Shown here: positions 1 to 8,256 of the stretch, one piece after another | Numbering within the stretch: position 1 is the first letter of the stretch | How the letters are laid out: each line of letters begins with the position of its first letter | IMG/VR virus record: IMGVR_UViG_2531839239_000027 | Origin: a virus | Lineage: Duplodnaviria > Heunggongvirae > Uroviricota > Caudoviricetes | Length of the DNA stretch: 8,256 nt | Direction: 5' to 3' (one strand) | Program-made: the position numbers and the translations under genes | Notes under the pieces: model-generated | What the model was told of the DNA's origin: nothing | Database searches by the model: none | The model's input: only the letters and a program-made list of their open reading frames with translations

Positions 1-1242
1 ATGGCGAGAAAAACACCCCCATTAACCACAGTACAGATCAAAGCAGCCAGACCAGCAGAAAAGGAATACACCCTACAGGACGGCGGAGGGCTTTTTCTCC
101 TGATCAAACCGTCCGGATCAAAACTCTGGAGATTTTCCTACTACCGACCATCGGACAAAAAAAGAATATTGCTGAGTTTTGGATCGCTTGATGATGTTTC
201 CCTGGCTGATGCCAGAAAACGCCGTAGCGAGTACAGGGCGTTAATTCGTGCCGGAACTGACCCGCAGGACCACGAGAGGCAAAAAAGAGAGACAGAGGCC
301 CGAAGACAAGGGAACACGTTCGAAAATGTGGCAACAGCATGGTACCAGGTGAAAATCAGCCAGAATCTGGCCCCCAATACGATTAAAGACATCTGGCGAT
401 CGCTGGAAAAATATGTATTCCCGTTCATCGGCAACACGCCAATAGACACCCTGACCGCTCGCAGGTTTGTTGAGGTGCTTACCCCCATCAAGGAACGTGG
501 CAACCTGGAAACGCTCAAGCGAGTTTTACAGCGTGTAAATGAGGTAATGGATTACGCCGCCAATAGTGGGATGATTGATGCCAATCCGGCTATGAATGTG
601 CGTAAGGCGTTCCCCTCCCCTGTAAAAAAACATATGCCAACAATCCGCCCCGAACAGCTGCCGGAGCTTATGCAGGCTTTATCAGTATCGGCAACAGAAC
701 GGCAGACCAGATTACTGATTGAATGGCAGTTACTGACCGTAACCCGTCCCGTTGAAGCATCGTCGGCACGCTGGGAAGAAATCGACATGGAGGCGCAACG
801 CTGGACCATACCCGCCGGACGCATGAAGATGCGCCGCGACCACGTTATCCCGCTTTGTGACCAGGCTATGGCAGTGCTGGAGGCTATGAAACCAATCAGC
901 CACCACCGCGATTATGTTTTCCCAAGTCTGAAAGACCCACGGCAGCCGATGAACAGCCAGACAGCAAACGCAGCATTACGACGCATGGGGTTCGCTGGCG
1001 TGCTGGTGTCTCATGGATTACGCGCCATATTCAGCACAGCAGCGAACGAGGAAGGATTCGAGCCGGACGTAATCGAGGCGGCACTTGCCCACGTCGACAC
1101 CAACGAAGTCAGACGGGCATACAACCGGAGCAACTACATAGAAAAACGCGTGGTGCTTATGCGCTGGTGGGGCGAATTTGTCGAGGCTGCGGCGACGGGC
1201 GTAACCCTCGCCAGTGGTAAAAGGGGTATCCGAGCCGTTTAG
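1..1242 (+). CDS. int: P4-type tyrosine integrase / site-specific recombinase
   Basis: 413-aa ORF starting at window position 1. N-terminus (LQDGGGLFLLIKPSGSKLWRFSYY...SLADARKRR) fits the arm-binding domain pattern of P4-family integrases. C-terminus has H-x-x-R (HGLRAIF) and the LAHV...RAYNRSNY tyrosine box of tyrosine recombinases. Its promoter and any att site lie outside the window. Confidence 0.9.
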   Translation: MARKTPPLTTVQIKAARPAEKEYTLQDGGGLFLLIKPSGSKLWRFSYYRPSDKKRILLSFGSLDDVSLADARKRRSEYRALIRAGTDPQDHERQKRETEARRQGNTFENVATAWYQVKISQNLAPNTIKDIWRSLEKYVFPFIGNTPIDTLTARRFVEVLTPIKERGNLETLKRVLQRVNEVMDYAANSGMIDANPAMNVRKAFPSPVKKHMPTIRPEQLPELMQALSVSATERQTRLLIEWQLLTVTRPVEASSARWEEIDMEAQRWTIPAGRMKMRRDHVIPLCDQAMAVLEAMKPISHHRDYVFPSLKDPRQPMNSQTANAALRRMGFAGVLVSHGLRAIFSTAANEEGFEPDVIEAALAHVDTNEVRRAYNRSNYIEKRVVLMRWWGEFVEAAATGVTLASGKRGIRAV

Positions 1243-1284
1243 CTGTACAGAAAACCAGTAAAAACTACGAAAACCATTTAAAAC

Positions 1285-1314
1285 CGTCGTATAATTGCAT
1301 CACATTTAACGACG
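1285..1314 (+). promoter_or_regulatory. Candidate sigma70 promoter: perfect -10 TATAAT (1290-1295), weak -35, flanked by inverted repeat CGTCGT(1285-1290)/ACGACG(1309-1314)
   Basis: TATAAT hexamer read directly; no good TTGACA-like -35 at 17 bp. The 6-bp inverted repeat brackets the -10 and predicted start site, so it could be an operator. Not verified. Confidence 0.35.
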
Positions 1315-1340
1315 AGGCCTTGAAAAATGAAACCGTTAAG

Positions 1341-1571
1341 ATGCAAACAAATTTCAGATGCAATTGCGACGGGCTGCAACTGGCCCTGATGGTTCAGCAT
1401 GAATTTTGGTCAACCTACGATCCGGAGGACAGAACGACGGCCCCATCAAAAAAACAGGTAGTAGATTTCCTGGTATCCCGTGGAGCTTCCAGAAATCTGG
1501 CTGTAAGTATTGATAAGGTTGTACGTCCGGCATCCATGAAGACCGGAGGCAGGCCCAAAAAATGGCGGTAA
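1341..1571 (+). CDS. Hypothetical small protein with a possible HTH-like segment; may instead be a non-coding transcript
   Basis: ORF-track frame 1320..1571 (TTG at 1320, first ATG at 1341). Neither start has a convincing Shine-Dalgarno; the GAGG at 1314-1317 is best placed for an out-of-frame 19-codon ORF at 1327. The unit is bounded by the TATAAT promoter and a strong terminator. Segment GASRNLAVSIDKVVR is HTH-like by eye only. Confidence 0.3.
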   Translation: MQTNFRCNCDGLQLALMVQHEFWSTYDPEDRTTAPSKKQVVDFLVSRGASRNLAVSIDKVVRPASMKTGGRPKKWR

Positions 1572-1581
1572 CAATCCTGAA

Positions 1582-1606
1582 AGCGGCAGAAATGCCGCTT
1601 TTTTTA
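1582..1606 (+). terminator. Rho-independent terminator
   Basis: Stem AGCGGCA (1582-1588), loop GAAA, stem TGCCGCT (1593-1599), followed by a T-run to 1605. Confidence 0.7.
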
Positions 1607-1634
1607 TAAATCCCTTTCAAATCATCAATATAAA

Positions 1635-1720
1635 AAACGGTGTATACCGTTTAAAAACGGTGAGTACTGTTTTTCCCTGCATCCGATGATTTACCGTATT
1701 TCTCACCGGAATACACCGGA
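1635..1720 (+). promoter_or_regulatory. Candidate operator cluster upstream of alpA: two tandem palindromes plus direct repeats
   Basis: AAACGGT-N4-ACCGTTT at 1635-1652 (perfect 7-bp arms) and AAACGGT-N4-ACTGTTT at 1655-1672 (6/7), centres 20 bp apart. Direct repeats CACCGGA at 1704-1710 and 1714-1720. Shine-Dalgarno GAGG at 1725-1728 for the 1739 ATG. No clean -35/-10 pair identified. Confidence 0.4.
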
Positions 1721-1738
1721 TTAATGAGGTAAATCACG

Positions 1739-1945
1739 ATGGAAGCAATCAAAAAAGTCATCTTTCGCCAGGAAGTAAAAAAACTTATCCATATTAAGGC
1801 AGACAGCACGCTGCAAAGCATGATCAACGCCGGAGAATTCCCGCAGGGTTTTCGTGTCGGTTTGCGCCGTCGCGGATGGTATGAGGAAGACGTAATCGCA
1901 TGGATGAAAGAACGCGAACAAGAAGCGCGCGGAACGACCGCTTAA
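1739..1945 (+). CDS. alpA: AlpA-family phage regulatory protein (excisionase/activator-like DNA-binding protein)
   Basis: 68-aa ORF; motif ...SMINAGEFPQGFRVGLRRRGWYEEDVIAWMKERE matches the AlpA-family pattern (FP.G.r.G.r..gW.e.dv..W). GAGG 10 nt upstream of the ATG. Position just after int is typical of P4-like and PICI elements. Confidence 0.85.
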   Translation: MEAIKKVIFRQEVKKLIHIKADSTLQSMINAGEFPQGFRVGLRRRGWYEEDVIAWMKEREQEARGTTA

Positions 1946-1970
1946 CATATATAGGGCAAATGATGAACAT

Positions 1971-1998
1971 AAAAAAAGCGGCCCCGAAATGGAGCCAC
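1971..1998 (-). terminator. Rho-independent terminator for minus-strand transcription
   Basis: Read on the minus strand: GUGGCUCC-AUUUC-GGGGCCGC (8-bp stem including two G-U pairs, 5-nt loop) followed by U7 (plus-strand A-run 1971-1977). Would stop transcripts from the RHH gene before they run antisense into alpA. Confidence 0.55.
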
Positions 1999-2066
1999 CT
2001 TTCTGAACAATTAACCCGCTGCGCCGTATGTGTCAACAATCATAAGCCTGGGCATGATAACCGCGA

Positions 2067-2270
2067 TCAGGCTGGTGGGCAATTATCTTGCTTGTTGGGG
2101 CCGTATTGTGCTGCCATTTTCATCCGTTCAGAACGTGAATATTTTTTTAGAAACTCATCAAGGACAAAAGCGCATGGTGCGAATCTTTCTGATTCATGCT
2201 CGAGCGCCATATTTTCGTGCTCTCTGTTCGTTTTTTGCGATGGTGTATTGGTTGATTCTTTATTGGTCAT
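2067..2270 (-). CDS. Hypothetical small protein (67 aa; alternative internal ATG at 2210 gives 47 aa); doubtful
   Basis: Only minus-strand ORF between the RHH gene stop (2328) and the minus-strand terminator (1971-1998), so it lies inside that transcript. Weak Shine-Dalgarno, lower-GC region, no recognisable motifs. Could be non-coding. Confidence 0.25.
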   Translation of the reverse strand: MTNKESTNTPSQKTNREHENMALEHESERFAPCAFVLDEFLKKYSRSERMKMAAQYGPNKQDNCPPA

Positions 2271-2327
2271 TGTGTGTACCTGTAAAGCAATGCGCCGTAG
2301 TACCTCACACCACGGCGCTGATAGTGA

Positions 2328-2633
2328 TTATTCTGATTCTTTGGCCTTGCGGCGCTGGAGTTCTTCACGTGCGACAGTGACGAGCTGCCCGATCTCCTCG
2401 GCGGCTTTGATTCCGAGTTTTTCCACCTGCGCCAGTGCATTGAGCGAAGAAATCAGGAGGTTTTCTCCGCTTCCTTCTGCCTGGCGGCGGGCGATTTCAC
2501 CGCGCATGGCGGTTACTATGAATCCGGCGTTGCTTTCACCGTCCAGTTTTACGGATTCCATGCCTTCAATAACATCATGCGGGATCCGAGCTGTCAGTGA
2601 TTGTGATTTTGCGTTTTTTGAACCTGTAGCCAT
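2328..2633 (-). CDS. Ribbon-helix-helix (Arc/CopG/MetJ-like) DNA-binding protein with C-terminal helical extension; putative repressor
   Basis: ORF-track frame 2328..2648 begins at TTG; the ATG at 2633-2631 with GAGAGG Shine-Dalgarno is the likelier start (101 aa). N-terminus KSQSLTARIPHDVIEGMESVKLDGESNAGFIVTAMRGEIARR has the beta-strand/helix/helix layout of RHH regulators. Divergent from the Icd-like-to-rep operon across an operator-rich region. Confidence 0.6.
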   Translation of the reverse strand: MATGSKNAKSQSLTARIPHDVIEGMESVKLDGESNAGFIVTAMRGEIARRQAEGSGENLLISSLNALAQVEKLGIKAAEEIGQLVTVAREELQRRKAKESE

Positions 2634-2654
2634 CTGTAATCCTCTCAATGAAAG

Positions 2655-2749
2655 TGTAAGACAATATACACATAAAAAGTCTTACATAAAAGCATTGACA
2701 TGTAAGCCACCTATAAATAAAGTTACTTACACCTTGTTAATGCAAGGTG
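2655..2749. promoter_or_regulatory. Divergent promoter/operator region: two TGTAAG...CTTACA palindromes, a sigma70-like promoter and a leader inverted repeat
   Basis: IR1 TGTAAGAC-N16-GTCTTACA (2655-2686). -35 TTGACA (2695-2700), 17-bp spacer, -10 TAAAGT (2718-2723), pointing rightward. IR2 TGTAAG-N19-CTTACA (2701-2731) overlaps the spacer and -10. IR3 CACCTTG-N6-CAAGGTG (2730-2749) sits at the predicted start site. A TATATT hexamer on the minus strand within IR1 could be the -10 for the RHH gene. Confidence 0.55.
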
Positions 2750-2829
2750 CAGAAACGACGAAACCCCGCACTGTAGGAGCAGTAACGGGGCTTCTAACCA
2801 CCAACGATAACGAGAGTATCGAGGTAGCT

Positions 2830-3030
2830 ATGAGAAATCATACCACACACCCGCAAGGGCGGGACTCGCACAACCTGAATAAATACATTTGGCGTTTTAT
2901 CGCCCTGAGCACTGCACAACCGCGCGTGATTACCATTGAGGCCACCAGCGAACAGGAAGCACGCCTGCAATCCCCGGCTGGCTGCGTGATGGTATTCGCT
3001 GCCCGTATTCGTCAGGGGGTAGGCTTATGA
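2830..3030 (+). CDS. Small protein resembling host cell-division inhibitor Icd-like proteins of P1/P4-type prophages
   Basis: 66 codons, the C-terminal part of the spurious long ORF 1900..3030. GAGG at 2821-2824, 5 nt before the ATG. Motif YIWRFIALS...TSEQEARLQ...VMVFAARIRQG matches my recollection of the Icd-like pattern (rF.f.a....A..E.aR...lAR.fvL.FAGR); from memory, not searched. Stop overlaps the next start (ATGA at 3027-3030). Confidence 0.45.
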   Translation: MRNHTTHPQGRDSHNLNKYIWRFIALSTAQPRVITIEATSEQEARLQSPAGCVMVFAARIRQGVGL

Positions 3031-3689
3031 GCCAGGAAATCACACTACAACAGGCAGCAGAACGCGCCCACCAAATCGAAGTTATTTGCGCACTGGCAGA
3101 GGATTACCCAAGCATGATGACCGACAGAGAATCAGGGGCAATCATCAGCTTACTTAAACGCCTTAGCGGTGAGGTCTGCGTATTCCTGATCGATGAACAG
3201 GAAAGAAGAACGCTTATTTCTAACGAAAAAAATGCGGAGGGGTACATGTGCAATAAAACCACACCGGACGCAGCCGCCGCGCTCACTACGCTGATGCACG
3301 CACTTATTGATATTGAATGCACGGCAGAGCTTGCGCAGGGAGAAGAACAGAAAGACCGGACACAGTTCGCCCTGGAATGTATCCGATACATCGCAACGCG
3401 GTCGCTGAATGACGCTAAAAATATTCTTGTTGCTGATTGTGAAAATGGGGGGGTTATGCGTGATGATCGTTTTAATTCCCTGAAACAAGAATTTTCCGGC
3501 GTTCCTGATGATGCGGCTGATGCGCTTTCGTCAATGCCAGAACTTATTAGAGCGGCTTTTTTCTTACTTTCCACGAGAGAATATAAATCAACGGGACTTG
3601 ATGTACTGAATATCGCCGCCGATTATGCGGAATATGTGGCAGAGGCGCGTTACAGAAGAAAATTTCCTGAGGATGTAAGCCATGCGTGA
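3027..3689 (+). CDS. Hypothetical protein (220 aa, acidic, predicted helical); function unknown
   Basis: Start overlaps the Icd-like stop; 8-nt overlap with the next ORF (ATGCGTGA at 3682-3689). G-rich Shine-Dalgarno-like stretch upstream. No catalytic or nucleotide-binding motif recognised. Confidence 0.6.
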   Translation: MSQEITLQQAAERAHQIEVICALAEDYPSMMTDRESGAIISLLKRLSGEVCVFLIDEQERRTLISNEKNAEGYMCNKTTPDAAAALTTLMHALIDIECTAELAQGEEQKDRTQFALECIRYIATRSLNDAKNILVADCENGGVMRDDRFNSLKQEFSGVPDDAADALSSMPELIRAAFFLLSTREYKSTGLDVLNIAADYAEYVAEARYRRKFPEDVSHA

Positions 3690-3915
3690 TATTTATCTTG
3701 AAACAATAGACCGCGCATCACTTGCACTTTCTCACAGTGAAAACATGATGGAAATATTGCGGATGTGCCTTGAATCCTTTGGCGATAATGAACGTAATGC
3801 AAAAAAAACGCGGATTATTACATCATTAATAACGCTTCTTGAGTCTGTAATAAATGAGTTGCAGGAAATAGAGACATTGCACGACAGATATAACGAACAG
3901 CACACCGGAGAATAA
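3682..3915 (+). CDS. Hypothetical protein (77 aa)
   Basis: GAGGA at 3668-3672 upstream of the ATG; start overlaps the upstream gene. No recognisable motif. Confidence 0.5.
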   Translation: MRDIYLETIDRASLALSHSENMMEILRMCLESFGDNERNAKKTRIITSLITLLESVINELQEIETLHDRYNEQHTGE

Positions 3916-3920
3916 AAATA

Positions 3921-4220
3921 ATGAAACTTAAATATTCTGGCTTAACTGCCAGTGGCAACACTCACCCTAAATTTACGCGCGGTGATATTTACCGCGACCA
4001 GTACGGCGGCACGGTAATGATTAAGGGCGTGGCGGGACGGTGCGTAACTTACCGCCGTGAAGGTTACGAATATGATTGCGTGATGCCTGTTTATCAGTTC
4101 CGGCGTGATTTTTCTCTGGTACAGACCGCGCCGCATAACGTGCCCACCAGCAACGCCAGGGCACGGGCAAACATCCAGAAGCTGAAAACCATGATTAACG
4201 GATTCAGGGGCAAGAAATGA
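3921..4220 (+). CDS. Hypothetical protein (99 aa, basic, Gly/Tyr/Arg-rich)
   Basis: GGAG at 3906-3909; stop overlaps the rep start (ATGA at 4217-4220). No recognisable motif. Confidence 0.5.
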   Translation: MKLKYSGLTASGNTHPKFTRGDIYRDQYGGTVMIKGVAGRCVTYRREGYEYDCVMPVYQFRRDFSLVQTAPHNVPTSNARARANIQKLKTMINGFRGKK

Positions 4221-5617
4221 AAAGCGCACCGAACTTAAAAAAACAGCCTTACGACAAGATGACCGAAGTCATCATTTTTGCGGGTAGTGATGCGTGGGCA
4301 CATGCGAAACAGTGGCAGGAACAGGACGGGCGACTGGCTGGCGATAATGTGCCTCCCGTTGTGCTGGCTGATGATCAACTGGATGAACTGGCAGACCTGA
4401 GAATCATCGACGAGGGGCGCTATTGTGTCCGGCTGTACAAGGCAGGCCACATCAGGCCATCAAATATTAATGCCATTGCGCACAAGCTGGCGGCGGCGGG
4501 TGTAACTGATGCGAATTATTACCCCGAAGGGATGCACAGCCAGAAGCGGGAGAACTGGCGCGAATATCTGGAACGGGAGCGGGGGAAAAAGCCAGGGGAA
4601 GAAAAACACCACCAGCGAAAAACCACGCTACCAATGAGCGTGGGATCTGCCGGATACGACACACAACTTGATTACGTGGTTAAGGGGATTATTCCGGCGG
4701 TATCGCTGTGCAGCATATACGGGGCGAGCGGTTCATATAAATCGTTCCTTGCGGGTTCGTGGGCGTGTCACGTTTCCACGGGCCGCCAGTGGGGAGGCCG
4801 CAGGGTGGCGCATGGCGCTGTTCTCTATGTGGTTGGTGAAGGCGGTATCGGCGTTCCGCGTCGTGTAAAAGCCTGGGAGGTTGTGCACGGTGAGCAGGTG
4901 AAAAATCTGTATCTGGTAAACCGTCCCATCTTTCCGGCTGCCCCGCTTGATGTTGAGGAAATGGTTATCGCTGCCCGTCAGGTGGAACGGGAAACGGGTA
5001 AACCGGTTCGAATGATTATTCTGGATACGCTGGCGCGCTGCTTTGGCGGCAATGATGAAAATGATTCCCGTGATATGGGGGCGTTTATCCGTGGGTGTGA
5101 CGAACTGAAACGGCGCACAGGGGCAACGGTGCTGGTGGTTCACCATTCCGGCAAGGATGAAACAAAGGGGGCGCGTGGTTCCAGTGCATTTCGTGCATCA
5201 CTGGACGCCGAATACCGGATACGCAGGGAGGACGCAGGCAGCGAAGCGCTGGTTATCTCATGTACCAAAATGAAGGACGCGGAGGAACTCAAAGAAGCAG
5301 CATATGACTTACGCGTGGTGGAGCTTTTTACCGACGCTGACGGGGAGTTAATCACGTCGCTGGTGGTGGTGGATAAGCCGCGCCCTCCCGTTGAACTGGA
5401 GCGCATCGAGGAGGCAGGGAACAAGACGGAGAATCACGCCGCGCTATGGCAGTGCATCAGAACACGAACAGCACACGGGGAGGCGTGCACTATCGCCCTT
5501 CTCCGCGACGATATGAAAAAGCTGGGGTATGAGATGAAGCACTTCCGGCGCTGGCTGTACAAGCTGGAAAATGATGGCGTAATCGTTATTGACGGTGATG
5601 ACGTGCGCCCGCTGTAA
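4217..5617 (+). CDS. rep: Replication protein: RepA/DnaB-like RecA-fold ATPase (AAA_25-type helicase) with an N-terminal domain of unknown function
   Basis: 466 aa. P-loop region YGASGSYKS, Walker B-like MIILDTLARCF, and LVVHHSGKDETKGARGSSAF matching the RepA-family sensor pattern (vhH.gK....RGssa). Followed immediately by an iteron array. AGGGG Shine-Dalgarno at 4204-4209. Confidence 0.8.
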   Translation: MKSAPNLKKQPYDKMTEVIIFAGSDAWAHAKQWQEQDGRLAGDNVPPVVLADDQLDELADLRIIDEGRYCVRLYKAGHIRPSNINAIAHKLAAAGVTDANYYPEGMHSQKRENWREYLERERGKKPGEEKHHQRKTTLPMSVGSAGYDTQLDYVVKGIIPAVSLCSIYGASGSYKSFLAGSWACHVSTGRQWGGRRVAHGAVLYVVGEGGIGVPRRVKAWEVVHGEQVKNLYLVNRPIFPAAPLDVEEMVIAARQVERETGKPVRMIILDTLARCFGGNDENDSRDMGAFIRGCDELKRRTGATVLVVHHSGKDETKGARGSSAFRASLDAEYRIRREDAGSEALVISCTKMKDAEELKEAAYDLRVVELFTDADGELITSLVVVDKPRPPVELERIEEAGNKTENHAALWQCIRTRTAHGEACTIALLRDDMKKLGYEMKHFRRWLYKLENDGVIVIDGDDVRPL

Positions 5618-5819
5618 AAAGTGGGGAGTAAAAGTGGGGGGAGTGGGGAATTTAACAAAATTGAAACATAATTACCCACTTTCCCACCTGTATATACCCA
5701 AAAAAGTGGGGAGTAAAAAACATATTGAAAAACATAACGTTAGAATCACAAAAAAAAGAGGTGGGGAGACGGTGGGTAATTTCAAAAAGTGGGGAGCAAA
5801 AGTGGGGAGTAGTGGGGAA
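5618..5819. repeat. Iteron array flanking an AT-rich core; putative origin of replication
   Basis: At least 9 direct copies of GTGGGGAG/GTGGGGAA/GTGGGTA at approximately 5621, 5634, 5643, 5706, 5761, 5772, 5789, 5802 and 5812. Inverted copies at 5674-5689 (ACCCACTTTCCCACC). A-rich core 5651-5756 with repeated ATTGAAA(AA)CATAA at about 5659 and 5724. Confidence 0.7.
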
Positions 5820-6064
5820 TGAACAGAAAAACCAGAGATAAGACAGCGCCAAAATATAAAGCGTTAGACATGACAGAGCTTTCCTTAAAGGTGGCAATCA
5901 GAACGATAGACCGCCACGCGGGGGAAGGATACGCGAAGGAGCATCCCGAACTGATAAGCGCATTCATGACCACAGCGGCGGCAAACTTTGCCACGCTGAC
6001 AGAACGGGAGATTGCCGAAGCGGAACAGGTAACAACCATCAACGTTAAAAGCGCTGGAGAATAA
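5819..6064 (+). CDS. Hypothetical protein (81 aa; alternative start at ATG 5870 gives 64 aa)
   Basis: ORF begins inside the last iteron and ends 19 nt before a strong terminator. GGGGAG 9 nt upstream of the 5819 ATG. No recognised motif. Confidence 0.4.
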   Translation: MNRKTRDKTAPKYKALDMTELSLKVAIRTIDRHAGEGYAKEHPELISAFMTTAAANFATLTEREIAEAEQVTTINVKSAGE

Positions 6065-6082
6065 CCGAAGAAGTGAGCACAT

Positions 6083-6107
6083 AGCCGGAGCAATCCGGCT
6101 TTTTTTC
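6083..6107 (+). terminator. Rho-independent terminator
   Basis: Stem AGCCGGA (6083-6089), loop GCAA, stem TCCGGCT (6094-6100), then T-run 6100-6106. Confidence 0.7.
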
Positions 6108-6194
6108 GATCTCATATATCTTCAAAGATGGTTAATTAATGATAATCTATCGAAAATACTGGTTATGCAATGATAAGTATCAGGAGAAAACAAA

Positions 6195-6389
6195 GTGGAA
6201 GAGATAAAGCAAAGCGCTACCGTGATGATTGATCATGAAATCCTTAACGAGCTTAAAAAGTTGCAGTTCGATATTGTGCGCCGGATGAATGAATCAGGTA
6301 TCTACGGCAGGGCGGCAACACCAACAATAGGGCATCTTGCGCGCGTACTGTTACGCGAACGCCTGGGCATTGCAACAAGTGAGGCGTAA
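6195..6389 (+). CDS. Hypothetical small protein (64 aa, GTG start), possibly a small DNA-binding protein
   Basis: Strong Shine-Dalgarno AGGAG (6182-6186) 8 nt before the GTG. First gene after the terminator and an AT-rich promoter-like region (6110-6180; GATAAT at 6141-6146). N-terminal beta-strand then helices (ATVMIDHEILNELKKL...) suggests an RHH-like fold; speculative. Confidence 0.45.
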   Translation: MEEIKQSATVMIDHEILNELKKLQFDIVRRMNESGIYGRAATPTIGHLARVLLRERLGIATSEA

Positions 6390-6392
6390 ACA

Positions 6393-6554
6393 ATGGCTAT
6401 CACAGAACGCGAGGCAAGCATCATTAAAGCCATTGGCGAGGAAACAAGAGACACCATAGCGCCATTGATGGAAAAGATCGCAGAGCTTGAGACACGAATA
6501 AACAAGCTGAGTGATGAAGTTGAAGGCCTGATCTCGTTACTCGGTGAGCAATGA
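6393..6554 (+). CDS. Hypothetical small helical protein (53 aa); not in the supplied ORF track
   Basis: Hand translation: MAITEREASIIKAIGEETRDTIAPLMEKIAELETRINKLSDEVEGLISLLGEQ. GAGG at 6381-6384, 8 nt before the ATG, which is 3 nt after the upstream stop. Heptad-like pattern. Confidence 0.4.
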   Translation: MAITEREASIIKAIGEETRDTIAPLMEKIAELETRINKLSDEVEGLISLLGEQ

Positions 6555-6640
6555 CAGGGGGGGAGTGTTCCGGCCGGAAAGTCGATCGCCCTGGACACCG
6601 CCCCCAGTCTCATTCATAGAAAATTTTGCTTTTCAAAAAA

Positions 6641-6660
6641 GTTACACGAAAAGTTACACC
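6641..6660 (+). repeat. Two direct GTTACAC(C) repeats 12 bp apart, immediately upstream of terS
   Basis: GTTACAC at 6641-6647 and GTTACACC at 6653-6660, each preceded by an A-run. Same motif and 12-bp spacing as the array inside terS. Confidence 0.5.
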
Positions 6661-6681
6661 CCCTCAAAACGAGGTTTTTGC

Positions 6682-7170
6682 ATGGCATTAACGACCAAAA
6701 AAAAGCGGTTTGCTGATGCGTTATCAAAGGGCACAAATCCAACGGAAGCCGCGATACATGCGGGATACAGCGAAAAGACTGCAAGGGTTAAAGGCTGGCA
6801 GCTATCCAATGATCCGGAGGTGAAAAAGTATCTTAAGGCTGTAACTTCTGATGTAACTTTTCAGGTTACAAAACCGAAAAAAGTTACAAAGAAAGTTACC
6901 GAAAAAGTTACACCGGAACGGGCATCAATTAACACCATTGAGATGATGGATAACGGCCTACCCGACCCCATCAAAGCAATGGGCAGGATACTGATTGACA
7001 ACATGGACACAGATCCAAAACTGGCTTTAGATGCCGCGTTTAAGCTGGCCCAGTTCACCCACCGCAAGATCGGCAGCATTGGGAAAAAAGAGGTTAAAAA
7101 ACTCAATGCCGCTAATGTCTCCTCAAATCGGTTCCCCATCCCTAAGCCACCAACTGGCTTAAAACACTGA
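6682..7170 (+). CDS. terS: Phage terminase small subunit (Terminase_2/P27-like N-terminal HTH)
   Basis: N-terminus MALTTKKKRFADALSKGTNPTEAAIHAGYSEKTARVKGWQLSNDPEVKKYL matches the TerS pattern (KQ.lF...Y...GNaT.AAi.AGYS.KTA...G..Ll.n..V..yi). ORF-track frame opens at 6544, but the ATG at 6682 with GAGG at 6671-6674 is the likely start. 162 aa from that start. Confidence 0.75.
   Translation: MALTTKKKRFADALSKGTNPTEAAIHAGYSEKTARVKGWQLSNDPEVKKYLKAVTSDVTFQVTKPKKVTKKVTEKVTPERASINTIEMMDNGLPDPIKAMGRILIDNMDTDPKLALDAAFKLAQFTHRKIGSIGKKEVKKLNAANVSSNRFPIPKPPTGLKH
6841..6914 (+). repeat. 12-bp-periodic array of GTTAC/GTAAC pentamers inside terS
   Basis: GTAAC at 6841 and 6853; GTTACA at 6865; GTTACA at 6883; GTTACC at 6895; GTTACACC at 6907. 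Spacings of 12 bp except one 18-bp gap. Encodes the low-complexity stretch VTSDVTFQVTKPKKVTKKVTEKVT. Confidence 0.55.
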
Positions 7171-7181
7171 GGTAGCGAACT

Positions 7182-7343
7182 ATGAGCGAATACATCACAG
7201 ACCCTATTGATGTACTCACGGAAATCATGAACGACAAGCAGCAGCCAACCGAAATACGGTTACAGGCTGCCGCTGTTCTGATGCCATATTTTCACGAAAC
7301 CCTAACCCCATGTTACCAGGAGGAAGAAGATAATGATTTCTAA
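7182..7343 (+). CDS. Hypothetical small protein (53 aa); not in the supplied ORF track
   Basis: Hand translation: MSEYITDPIDVLTEIMNDKQQPTEIRLQAAAVLMPYFHETLTPCYQEEEDNDF. GAGG at 7169-7172; begins 11 nt after the terS stop and overlaps the next start by 11 nt. Confidence 0.4.
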   Translation: MSEYITDPIDVLTEIMNDKQQPTEIRLQAAAVLMPYFHETLTPCYQEEEDNDF

Positions 7344-8256
7344 AAACATGAAAGGCGTGTCGGCAGTTCGCGCCGCCAGCGTGCTTACATCGTGTAAATT
7401 CAGCCATGCAGACGCAATTGAAATGACGAAAAAAAATGATCCGGCAGTATCGAAATTTCTTGAAAAATCCATTGTTGCCGGAATGACTACGGATAATATG
7501 CCGTCGCTGGTGGCAGAGCCGATAGTAAGAGAGCTTGGCGAGTATATTTTTTCGCAGTCTGTACCAGGCAAGCTAATCAGCAGCGCGCTGAATCTTCCGT
7601 TTGGCGCAAAATTGCAGTCAATATCAGGCAAGGGTAGTAAATGGCTTAAAGAAGCCGAAGAAATCCCTGTCAAAGAGGGAGAAGTAAACGAAAGTGCGCT
7701 AAAACTGTGCAAACTTGGCGCTATTGTGATGCTGAATAACGAGCTAATCAAATTTAGCACCCCTGGTACCAATTCAGCGATCAGAGACTTGATCACATCG
7801 GAATCGGTGAAAGAAATAGATAAAAAATTTCTTTCCAGTGACCAGGAGGTGGCGGGCGTATCCCCTGAGGGCGTGCTTAATGGTGCTGATGAGGCCGAAA
7901 ACTTCATAGAGCTTTTCAAAAAGCACATAGCGAACGGTAACACGCTTGCCACGTCGTCGCTAATCTTGCCCGTAGAAAACGCCTTACAGCTTACTGATGC
8001 TGAGTTCTGGCAGATAGAGCTTTTGAGAATACCGGTAATTGTGAGCGAACAGGCGGATCGCATGATGCTGATAGACGCTCAAAAGCTGATTATTAACGTT
8101 GAAGCCACGGTTATAACCCCAACTGATGAGGCGGTAATAAAAACCGAATCAGGGACGGTTAGCCTTTTCCAGAATGACGCTACAGCGTTCAGGGCAATCA
8201 CCTATTGCGGATGGCAAAAACTCGATAAGGCCGTCACCGTTCTGGCGAAAAGCTGA
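7333..8256 (+). CDS. HK97-fold phage major capsid protein-like (no N-terminal scaffold/delta domain)
   Basis: 307 aa, complete (stop at 8254-8256). GGAGG at 7318-7322. Segments SPEGVLNGADEAENF and ATSSLILPVENALQLTDAEF line up by eye with the HK97 gp5 segments EGQLLNGDGTGDNLEGL and ASGIVLNPRDWHNIALLKD. Alignment is from memory and unverified. Confidence 0.6.
   Translation: MISKNMKGVSAVRAASVLTSCKFSHADAIEMTKKNDPAVSKFLEKSIVAGMTTDNMPSLVAEPIVRELGEYIFSQSVPGKLISSALNLPFGAKLQSISGKGSKWLKEAEEIPVKEGEVNESALKLCKLGAIVMLNNELIKFSTPGTNSAIRDLITSESVKEIDKKFLSSDQEVAGVSPEGVLNGADEAENFIELFKKHIANGNTLATSSLILPVENALQLTDAEFWQIELLRIPVIVSEQADRMMLIDAQKLIINVEATVITPTDEAVIKTESGTVSLFQNDATAFRAITYCGWQKLDKAVTVLAKS

Follow-up and report, generated by a model that had tools for sequence, protein, structure and literature searches.

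What kind of mobile element carries an integrase, a replication gene, a small terminase subunit and a capsid gene, without tail or lysis genes, and on which phages would it depend for its spread? These questions are raised by a stretch of 8,256 nucleotides from the IMG/VR virus record IMGVR_UViG_2531839239_000027 (Duplodnaviria; Heunggongvirae; Uroviricota; Caudoviricetes), the whole of which we call the window. A first-pass annotation of this DNA, made from the sequence alone, had read it as the left part of a satellite-like integrative island. Here, we argue that the window in all likelihood holds the complete gene set of the phage-inducible chromosomal island (PICI) EcCI11128 / EcCI11368.1, integrated at the tRNA gene proL, and that lambdoid siphophages of the Shiga toxin (Stx) type are its most likely helpers.

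The window is Escherichia coli DNA. It is matched over its full length, at 99.8-99.9% identity, by the chromosomes of O111, O26 and other Shiga-toxin-producing strains, and at least 80% of it is present in 165 of 5426 complete E. coli genomes. Two elements of these serotypes, EcCI11128 (O111:H- 11128, 9.3 kb) and EcCI11368.1 (O26:H11 11368, 8.5 kb), have been catalogued at the yejM-luxR site (Fillol-Salom et al. 2018, ISME J, Table S1, PMC6092414), and both occupy the same site as the window island (yejM/proL to yejO/narP). The Int, AlpA, RepA, TerS and capsid proteins of EcCI11128 are identical to those of the window, and the right 4.8 kb of EcCI11368.1 is 99.8% identical to it, the left 2.5 kb 90-93%. 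The element is this catalogued Gram-negative PICI, an ordinary member of a known family, and the comparison with catalogued satellite families that the first-pass annotation had recommended finds its match here. Its classification as a PICI dates from 2018 and was therefore already known; both copies were then given as candidates, without experimental study (Fillol-Salom et al. 2018). The two sizes in the published table are explained by a 679-bp extra segment that the EcCI11128 copy has in its regulatory region and the window copy lacks. These extra bases lie among the leftward genes (locus L007, 2923-3556) and include a second, shorter hypothetical gene.

The limits of the island were fixed by aligning the K-12 empty site, in which proL directly adjoins yejO, with both junctions. 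In NZ_CP159877, 219 bp separate tRNA-Pro (proL) from int; at the other end a non-coding stretch of 366 bp comes after the capsid gene, then attR, and beyond it the chromosomal genes yejO, narP and ccm/nap. The alignment sets the two limits of the island at the tRNA 3' end and immediately before AAAAATCCC, for a length of ~8.84 kb, and it is in enterohaemorrhagic and Shiga-toxin-producing E. coli (EHEC/STEC) lineages that the island occupies this end of proL. No tRNA gene was found within the window, the target tRNA lying 219 bp to its left. Only ~216 bp at the left (attL and the arm repeats) and ~366 bp at the right are missing from the window; because it is cut exactly from the ATG of int to the stop codon of the capsid gene, it holds every island gene, and so the earlier description of it as the left part of an island has to be given up.

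The attachment sites themselves are less regular. In locus L001 attL lies at 14768-14790 and attR at 23611-23625; attR is at 8993 in L006, at 9890 in L007 and at 11893 in L010. The identity shared by attL and attR is short, CTCTCGTG plus a run of A, and the attR junction between CTCTCGTG and AAAAATCCC reads C in NZ_CP159877, CC in O26 11368 and O111 11128, and GACC in ATCC 25922, the attB sequence being CCGACC. As to the flanking direct repeats that the first-pass annotation advised looking for, the boundaries are given by the empty site, and the repeats are short and, at attR, vary between strains. On excision, the right end would be joined to the left end across CTCTCGTG...AAATCGCC to give the attP circle. 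The att core of this element has been given as 26-29-nt TTT(G)TAGTTATACG repeats (Fillol-Salom et al. 2018, Table S1), and the same authors reported that PICI att sites are not used by prophages. There are indeed 26-nt TTTTAGTTATACGTTTAGTTATACGG repeats near both ends, two direct and two inverted copies at the left and two direct copies at the right (TTTTAGTTATACG; L001 14913-14976 and 23525-23550); all are internal to the island, and the K-12 empty site has none of them. They look like arm-type binding sites and not like the recombination core. Because the published repeats are internal and absent from the empty site, the true ends lie at the 3' end of the tRNA, ~130 bp and 72 bp further out, and the published att assignment for this element is corrected here.

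PICIs have been defined by five core components, an integrase, a regulator, a primase-replicase, a capsid morphogenesis gene and a small terminase subunit (TerS), in the absence of tail, holin and capsid-forming PICI (cf-PICI) genes; 375 elements with all five are known, 97% of them in E. coli (de Sousa et al.). All five are present in the window, and Pfam and PHROG scans detected none of the excluded gene classes. The integrase gene stands at one end, points inward and is the first gene after attL; an AlpA-type regulator adjoins it (1739-1945); the island has its own replication module, with a variant replicase and an iteron origin directly downstream; the capsid-morphogenesis gene is probably represented by an HK97-family homologue at 7333-8256; the small terminase subunit is encoded at 6682-7170; and the length falls within the range of about 8-15 kb that is usual for PICIs. 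No tail, lysis, holin, portal, protease, large terminase (terL) or head-tail connector gene was found in the window or its flanks. The first-pass annotation had proposed a satellite instead of a full prophage, on the strength of the order int, alpA, switch, early operon up to a RepA-like helicase, iteron origin, terS and capsid gene and of the lack of tail, lysis and large-terminase genes in 8 kb. We found each of these genes and sites in that order; the lack extends to the flanks, which consist of chromosomal genes, and the boundaries are visible against the empty site. The island is a PICI-type satellite and not a prophage.

Which phages would then serve as helpers? The TerS protein and the capsid homologue were searched separately against 50,697 phage records, and both led to the same group, made up of Stx1a-, Stx2c- and some Stx2a-converting phages and of PPompW-type prophages. 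The TerS of the Stx1a/Stx2c/PPompW phages shares 47% identity with that of the island (over 96% of the length of the latter), and the capsid homologue, over 97% of its length, has 23% identity with a protein of this group. An isolated member, vB_EcoS_phi330, belongs to the genus Pankowvirus, with phages 2851, 1717 and YYZ-2008. The head module of the group comprises an HNH nuclease, TerS, TerL, a 645-aa prohead protease-capsid fusion and a portal protein.

In HK97-type phages the cos site is located between the HNH gene and terS. At 6557-6635 (plus strand), just ahead of terS, the window has a GC-rich element that is a candidate cos-type packaging site, with a core, GACACCGCCCCCAGTCTCATT, at 6594-6614. 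This element is 80% identical to the HNH-terS intergenic DNA of the Stx1 phage Stx1_499 and was matched in only 78 of the 50,697 phage records, all of one phage group. Its core motif GAMACCKCSCCCNNTCTCAYK, for which 0 occurrences are expected by chance in the window, is present exactly once, just upstream of terS, in the window, in the O26, O111 and O157 islands, in Stx1_499 and in phi330, and again once, at the same position, in a Serratia island and in a helper prophage together with the two satellites embedded in it; it is absent from the examined loci that have no packaging module. Since TerS and the capsid homologue match one phage group, and the cos-like element is common only to that group, the most likely helpers would be Pankowvirus-type lambdoid siphophages with an HNH-TerS-TerL-protease::capsid-portal module.

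Downstream of this element, island and phages have different repeat arrays. Six AAAGTTAC repeats, two upstream of terS and four inside it, occupy 6638-6911 of the window (seven in the whole window, against 0.20 expected), and GTTAAC repeats stand at the equivalent place in the phage. This arrangement suggests that the shared element could be the cleavage site of the helper TerL/HNH and the differing repeats the sites of the respective TerS proteins, the AAAGTTAC repeats being candidate recognition sites of the island's own TerS. Three of the repeats, at 12-nt spacing inside terS (6880-6911), encode a peptide repeat, KKVTKKVTEKVT, in the TerS linker. The DNA at this place may be both coding and TerS-binding.

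The phage group in question is common. Its head module was found in 1257 (23%) of the 5426 complete E. coli genomes and the island packaging module in 220 (~4%), always at 95% identity or more; among the matches listed, the carriers of the packaging module are overwhelmingly O26, O111, O157 and O55 strains. In two sampled lists, at least four genomes (RM9322, 8479, 2011C_4037 and 7_29_23A) hold both modules. In a literature search, which was incomplete, neither this island nor a helper role of Stx phages for PICIs was found to have been studied.

The distant relatives of the packaging module bear on the same question. On one assembled contig of 194 kb there are two copies of a protein 47% identical to the capsid homologue, and each copy ends a small island composed of int, a RepA-type helicase gene, a TerS-like gene, a 53-aa open reading frame (ORF) and the capsid homologue. 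Both islands interrupt a single prophage, one in terL and the other in the protease::capsid gene. The TerL and the capsid fusion of this prophage are 57-75% identical to those of Stx1_499, and at the cos-like element both islands have 32 identical nt in common with it. To judge from these sequences, the embedded relatives are the strongest argument that this family of packaging modules exploits this type of phage head. They show the four-zone organization of the helper-embedded PICIs (Tommasini, Mageeney and Williams 2023); outside E. coli, their terS, 53-aa ORF and capsid gene are the nearest to those of the window. Relative to the window, their RepA is 60% and their integrase 37% identical and their iteron is the same, but the window island resides at a tRNA gene and not in a helper. 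Each embedded satellite (L008 1877-10969 and 13436 onward; L009) also has a 763-800-aa protein between its small genes and the TerS-like gene; the protein has no Pfam match and may be cargo.

Nearer relatives document modular exchange. At cspD-clpS, an O157:H7 island with a different integrase and a replicase of the primase type terminates in a packaging cassette 97% identical to that of the window, and the two small genes of 64 and 53 aa that open the module in the window (6195-6554, plus strand; RefSeq coding sequences, CDS) accompany terS and the capsid gene there too. Conversely, the proL integrase of ATCC 25922 is identical to that of the O26 copy and is joined to a late region of the type found in EcCICFT073, the island of strain CFT073. 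In Serratia aquatilis, the only other species-representative genome with the capsid homologue, the trio of terS, 53-aa ORF and capsid gene is found with the cos-like motif (L013 9385-10936, 11242-11317), and the island there ends adjoining a tRNA-Met gene on the opposite strand. One packaging cassette, in short, moves between PICIs with different integrases and replicases.

Three of the genes in this cassette deserve closer description. The TerS of 162 aa (6682-7170, plus strand) matches Pfam Terminase_2 (E 1e-10) and phrog_641 (E 6e-44). It is followed at 7182-7343 (plus strand) by a 53-aa protein that we call mini-TerS, a stand-alone homologue of the core segment of TerS (residues 89-128): it matches positions 89-126 of phrog_641 (E 8e-7), aligns with TerS residues 89-128 in hhalign (probability 94%, E 1e-7) and matches the TerS of the helper prophage in tblastn (E 5e-6). 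Plain BLASTP of mini-TerS against TerS found nothing, the relationship being visible only by profile methods and tblastn. Because a 53-aa ORF is kept at the same place, between terS and the capsid gene, in the O157 island (L014), in Serratia aquatilis (L013) and in the embedded relatives (L008, L009), mini-TerS is a real, conserved gene; its end overlaps the start of the capsid gene by 11 nt. The core segment that it copies is the part best conserved between the island and helper TerS (72% identical; 61% in the N-terminal domain). One may speculate from this homology that the free-standing core segment might enter TerS assemblies or obstruct them; our literature search found no precedent for such a mechanism in satellites.

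The last gene of the island (7333-8256, plus strand) encodes a protein of 307 aa which appears to be a capsid-protein homologue of the HK97 family (Pfam Phage_capsid, 28.8 bits with a cut-off of 24.2; PHROG major head protein, E 1e-10; TIGR01554, 26.8 bits, just below the 27.5 cut-off). In tblastn, 94-97% of its length matches annotated phage major capsid proteins, the lowest E being 5e-17, and a phmmer search of PDB sequences gave nothing at E <= 1. In the 645-aa protease-capsid fusion of Stx1_499 it aligns with residues 291-633 and so corresponds to the capsid part without the protease. A word-indexed protein search returned 7 clusters of relatives, to which the scan of species-representative genomes added the Serratia aquatilis locus.

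Replication would be ensured by a RepA-type (AAA_25) initiator/helicase (4217-5617, plus strand; Pfam AAA_25, E 3e-43; phrog_2850, E 2e-258), in which no primase domain was detected. Its gene is followed at 5615-5820 by a replication origin in which two groups of AAGTGGGGAG iterons flank an AT-rich stretch; the motif has 7 matches, where chance would give 0.39. The same iteron is found 3' of the 60%-identical RepA genes of the distant relatives L008 and L009 and is absent from EcCICFT073; because it pairs with this RepA type in distant relatives, the assignment of the origin is supported, and the layout agrees with the published description of PICI origins (Fillol-Salom et al. 2018). G+C reaches 54-58% in the RepA gene and origin region (4000-6250), as against about 45-50% elsewhere in the island, and the GC skew there is strongly positive. 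Such a composition fits a module of different origin.

From these parts a life cycle can be proposed, in which induction, the helper and the part played by each packaging feature (cos-like element, repeats, mini-TerS, capsid homologue) are inferred from homology. A helper phage would switch on alpA, by analogy with EcCICFT073; AlpA would then activate the rightward operon, Int would excise the island, and the RepA-type helicase would replicate it from the iteron origin just 3' of its gene. The island TerS would bind the AAAGTTAC repeats and recruit the helper TerL and HNH nuclease to the helper-type cos-like element upstream of terS. The capsid homologue would co-assemble with the helper protease-capsid fusion into capsids suited to a small genome, as does Ccm of the Staphylococcus aureus island SaPIbov5, and mini-TerS may bind TerS rings.

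EcCICFT073, from which the first steps are borrowed, is the prototype Gram-negative PICI, with lambda and phi80 as helpers. In experiments, helper phages turned on its alpA gene, AlpA activated its own promoter along with the island genes, int was required for excision, and pri-ori for replication. By homology, this scheme of induction, excision and replication may hold for the window island too. The two islands have the same overall layout, including the iteron origin after the replicase, and near-identical early regions (Icd-like protein 97%, the regulator RgdR 91%, neighboring small genes 78-90%, with 78% for a 77-aa gene); a YlcI/YnfO gene and a 67-aa leftward gene (45% identical) are also present in both. 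In contrast, the integrases are only 24% and the AlpA proteins 29% identical, and the att sites differ. The replicase of EcCICFT073 is of the primase type and shares only its N-terminal 122 aa with the window RepA (65% identical; window 4217-4582), and the iterons differ as well. Its late module has a lambda-type capsid protein and a decoration protein and no TerS, whereas that of the window has TerS, mini-TerS and the HK97-type capsid homologue, the latter with no detectable similarity to c1499 of EcCICFT073.

For the late steps the nearer functional model may be SaPIbov5, whose Ccm, a homologue of the HK97-fold capsid protein of its helper, occupies the pentamers and forces the formation of small isometric capsids (PMC8569155). 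SaPIbov5 is a satellite of HNH/cos-type phages and carries the helper cos site, and by analogy its capsid redirection could also be the function of the gene at 7333-8256; it belongs, however, to a host of a different phylum, is regulated by a Stl repressor and has no sequence relationship to the window. The window island encodes its own TerS; SaPIbov5, to our knowledge, lacks one.

Several observations weigh against this interpretation of the island as a functional PICI of Stx-type phages. The capsid homologue is just 23% identical to the helper protein, and its AlphaFold2 model, built on a 7-sequence alignment, was too poor to be used (pLDDT 54). In EcCICFT073, deletion of the unrelated capsid homologue changed neither transfer nor interference, so that a PICI capsid homologue need not redirect capsid size. 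The cos assignment is based on position and conservation and not on mapped DNA ends. Because the helper-type module is present in 23% of E. coli genomes, its co-residence with the island is weak evidence for a helper relationship. The early operon has fused ORFs, with a frameshift annotated in relatives, and attR is imperfect and strain-variable, through natural attP variation or small crossover deletions, such that excision may be impaired.

The last two points are also those on which one could build the view that the island is the same PICI, now immobile and retained for some benefit to its host, either the action of RgdR on type III secretion and motility or interference with Stx phages. 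The shortened attR junction that differs between strains, the fused and "frameshifted" ORFs and the extra 679 bp that O111 11128 has in its regulatory region all accord with it, as do the effects of RgdR orthologues on host regulation and the fact that island copies in O26/O111 genomes are 99.7-100% identical, as one would expect of vertical descent among related lineages. A locked element would, nonetheless, hardly be expected to keep its core genes all intact in 165-220 genomes. The O111-type and O26 copies, at 90-93% identity on the left and 99.8% on the right, bear the mark of recombination, and the association of the packaging module with three integrase/att modules (proL, cspD-clpS and the embedded relatives) speaks of recent modular exchange and mobility. 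We therefore regard immobility as improbable, if still worth keeping in mind.

Much less can be said for a decayed lambdoid prophage that retained int, a replication gene, terS and a capsid gene. Islands of this sort have historically been annotated as defective prophages (OI-51/CP-933C, for example), and terS and the capsid gene are of phage origin; yet the inward int, alpA, rightward transcription, iteron origin and terminal terS/capsid genes are the layout of a satellite, this compact arrangement is also seen at other att sites, and there are no fragments of tail, lysis, portal or terL genes. Nor can TerS and the capsid homologue be recent leftovers, as they are only 47% and 23% identical to any phage copy; a temperate prophage would moreover have tail, lysis, portal and terL genes and an early/late organization with an outward-pointing int, which is not what the window contains. 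We give this explanation hardly any credence, and the same is true of a P4-like satellite or a cf-PICI that had lost part of its genes. The P4-like elements have in common with the window a P4-type integrase architecture and an AlpA-family regulator, and the cf-PICIs share with PICIs the integrase-proximal half and encode both TerS and a capsid protein. But none of the P4 hallmarks (psu-delta-sid operon, alpha primase-helicase, epsilon) was detected in the window by Pfam and PHROG scans, and no C4/isrK/CI-type immunity RNA, or RNA of any other family, by Rfam at E <= 0.1; immunity-type RNAs have been reported in some Gram-negative PICIs (Tommasini et al. 2023). The first-pass annotation had left the choice between PICI and P4-like satellite open, and it is the first of these that survives, there being no match to sid/psu/delta, an alpha-type primase or CI/C4 RNA to support a strict P4 relationship. 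Similarly, the terL, portal, protease, head-tail adaptor and connector genes of cf-PICIs are lacking, and 366 bp beyond the capsid gene the island is at its end and yejO follows. The same short module is, finally, kept in Serratia and in the embedded relatives, which speaks against such a loss of genes.

If the island is a PICI with Stx1a/Stx2c-type helpers, as we favor, it may affect the release and transfer of Shiga toxin phages by the pathogens that carry it; it also carries an RgdR-type regulator of a type III secretion system. A bolder proposal, which we regard as possible and rather doubtful, is that the lineage with terS, mini-TerS, capsid gene and helper-type cos has specialized in parasitizing Stx-converting phages and related lambdoid phages of the Pankowvirus type: its own TerS would redirect packaging, its free TerS core peptide would poison or re-program the helper TerS ring, and a scaffold-less capsid paralogue would shrink the heads. 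Such an island could lower the yield of Stx phages and their spread in O26/O111/O157 strains. The link to the helper group, the shared cos-like element, mini-TerS, the embedded relatives and the orthology of RgdR are new, the first three being leads of moderate interest.

RgdR is the product of the gene that directly precedes the replicase. Its window orthologue, a DUF4222 protein of 99 aa (3921-4220, plus strand; Pfam DUF4222, E 2e-23; RGD at residues 20-22), is 91% identical to C1493 of CFT073, and the gene overlaps the replicase start (ATGA). In every island seen, the RgdR gene precedes the replicase, whichever replicase type comes next. The 99-aa RgdR (ECs1581/C1493) has been shown to activate the type III secretion system of the LEE (locus of enterocyte effacement) and to repress motility (Flockhart et al., PMC3378721), and by its sequence the DUF4222 protein of the window is an orthologue of this LEE regulator. 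Besides its effect on the LEE, RgdR may have a role in island replication. As to the under-annotated accessory cargo that the first-pass annotation expected, this one gene is all that was found: PADLOC detected no defense system (a single weak Cas8g match to a 67-aa protein was disregarded), and the island has no cargo beyond the window.

The early operon that leads to RgdR opens with an Icd-like gene (host cell division inhibitor-like; 2830-3030, plus strand; NCBIfam phage_ICD_like, E 2e-19). It continues with a fused ORF of 220 aa (3027-3689, plus strand), successive segments of which match PHROGs 1478, 5146/2512 and 24341. In NZ_CP159877, where the length differs by 1 nt, two CDS take the place of this ORF; O111 11128 has a pseudogene annotated as "frameshifted" there, and EcCICFT073 three small ORFs that overlap. 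These differences are either variable fusions or differences of sequencing in homopolymers. A small gene of 77 aa (3682-3915, plus strand; phrog_2196, E 1e-30) completes the series, and beyond the replicase and origin there is another, of 81 aa (5819-6064, plus strand; phrog_1231, E 6e-48), followed by a terminator-like hairpin found in a terminator scan (6083-6107).

At the left end, the tyrosine integrase (1-1242, plus strand) has the P4-type domain architecture (Pfam Arm-DNA-bind_3, Phage_int_M and Phage_integrase, E 1e-23 to 1e-29; NCBIfam PRK09692, 554 bits), is identical to WP_000101907.1 of O111 11128 and would target the 3' end of tRNA-Pro proL. A small hypothetical ORF of 83 aa (1320-1571, plus strand; taken from the ORF list, and annotated as 77 aa in L006 and L007) has no family match in Pfam or PHROG, and a hairpin with a T-run, seen on reading the sequence, follows at 1582-1606. 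Two tandem 20-nt repeats, AAAAACGGTGTATACCGTTT / AAAAACGGTGAGTACTGTTT (1633-1672; repeat family D12), lie 70-100 nt upstream of alpA and form a candidate regulator-binding site. AlpA itself (1739-1945, plus strand), a helix-turn-helix (HTH) regulator of the activator/excisionase type, is annotated as such in RefSeq and matches PHROG 66/2790 excisionase/regulator (E 1e-7); in Pfam the match to Phage_AlpA is weak (E 0.003, below the cut-off), and HTH_17 is matched too.

Two genes on the minus strand then follow, one of 67 aa (2067-2270; RefSeq CDS; phrog_21027, E 2e-12) and one for a YlcI/YnfO-family protein (2328-2633; NCBIfam YlcI_YnfO_N, E 5e-20; phrog_6522, E 1e-56), the latter a candidate for the repressor side of a divergent switch. 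Between the divergent genes, ahead of the rightward early operon, a consensus scan placed a promoter-like site, TTGACA-17-TAAAGT (2695-2723, plus strand; 10/12 matches). The sole copy of AAAGTTAC outside the packaging region, at 2719-2726, overlaps the -10 hexamer of this site, possibly by chance.

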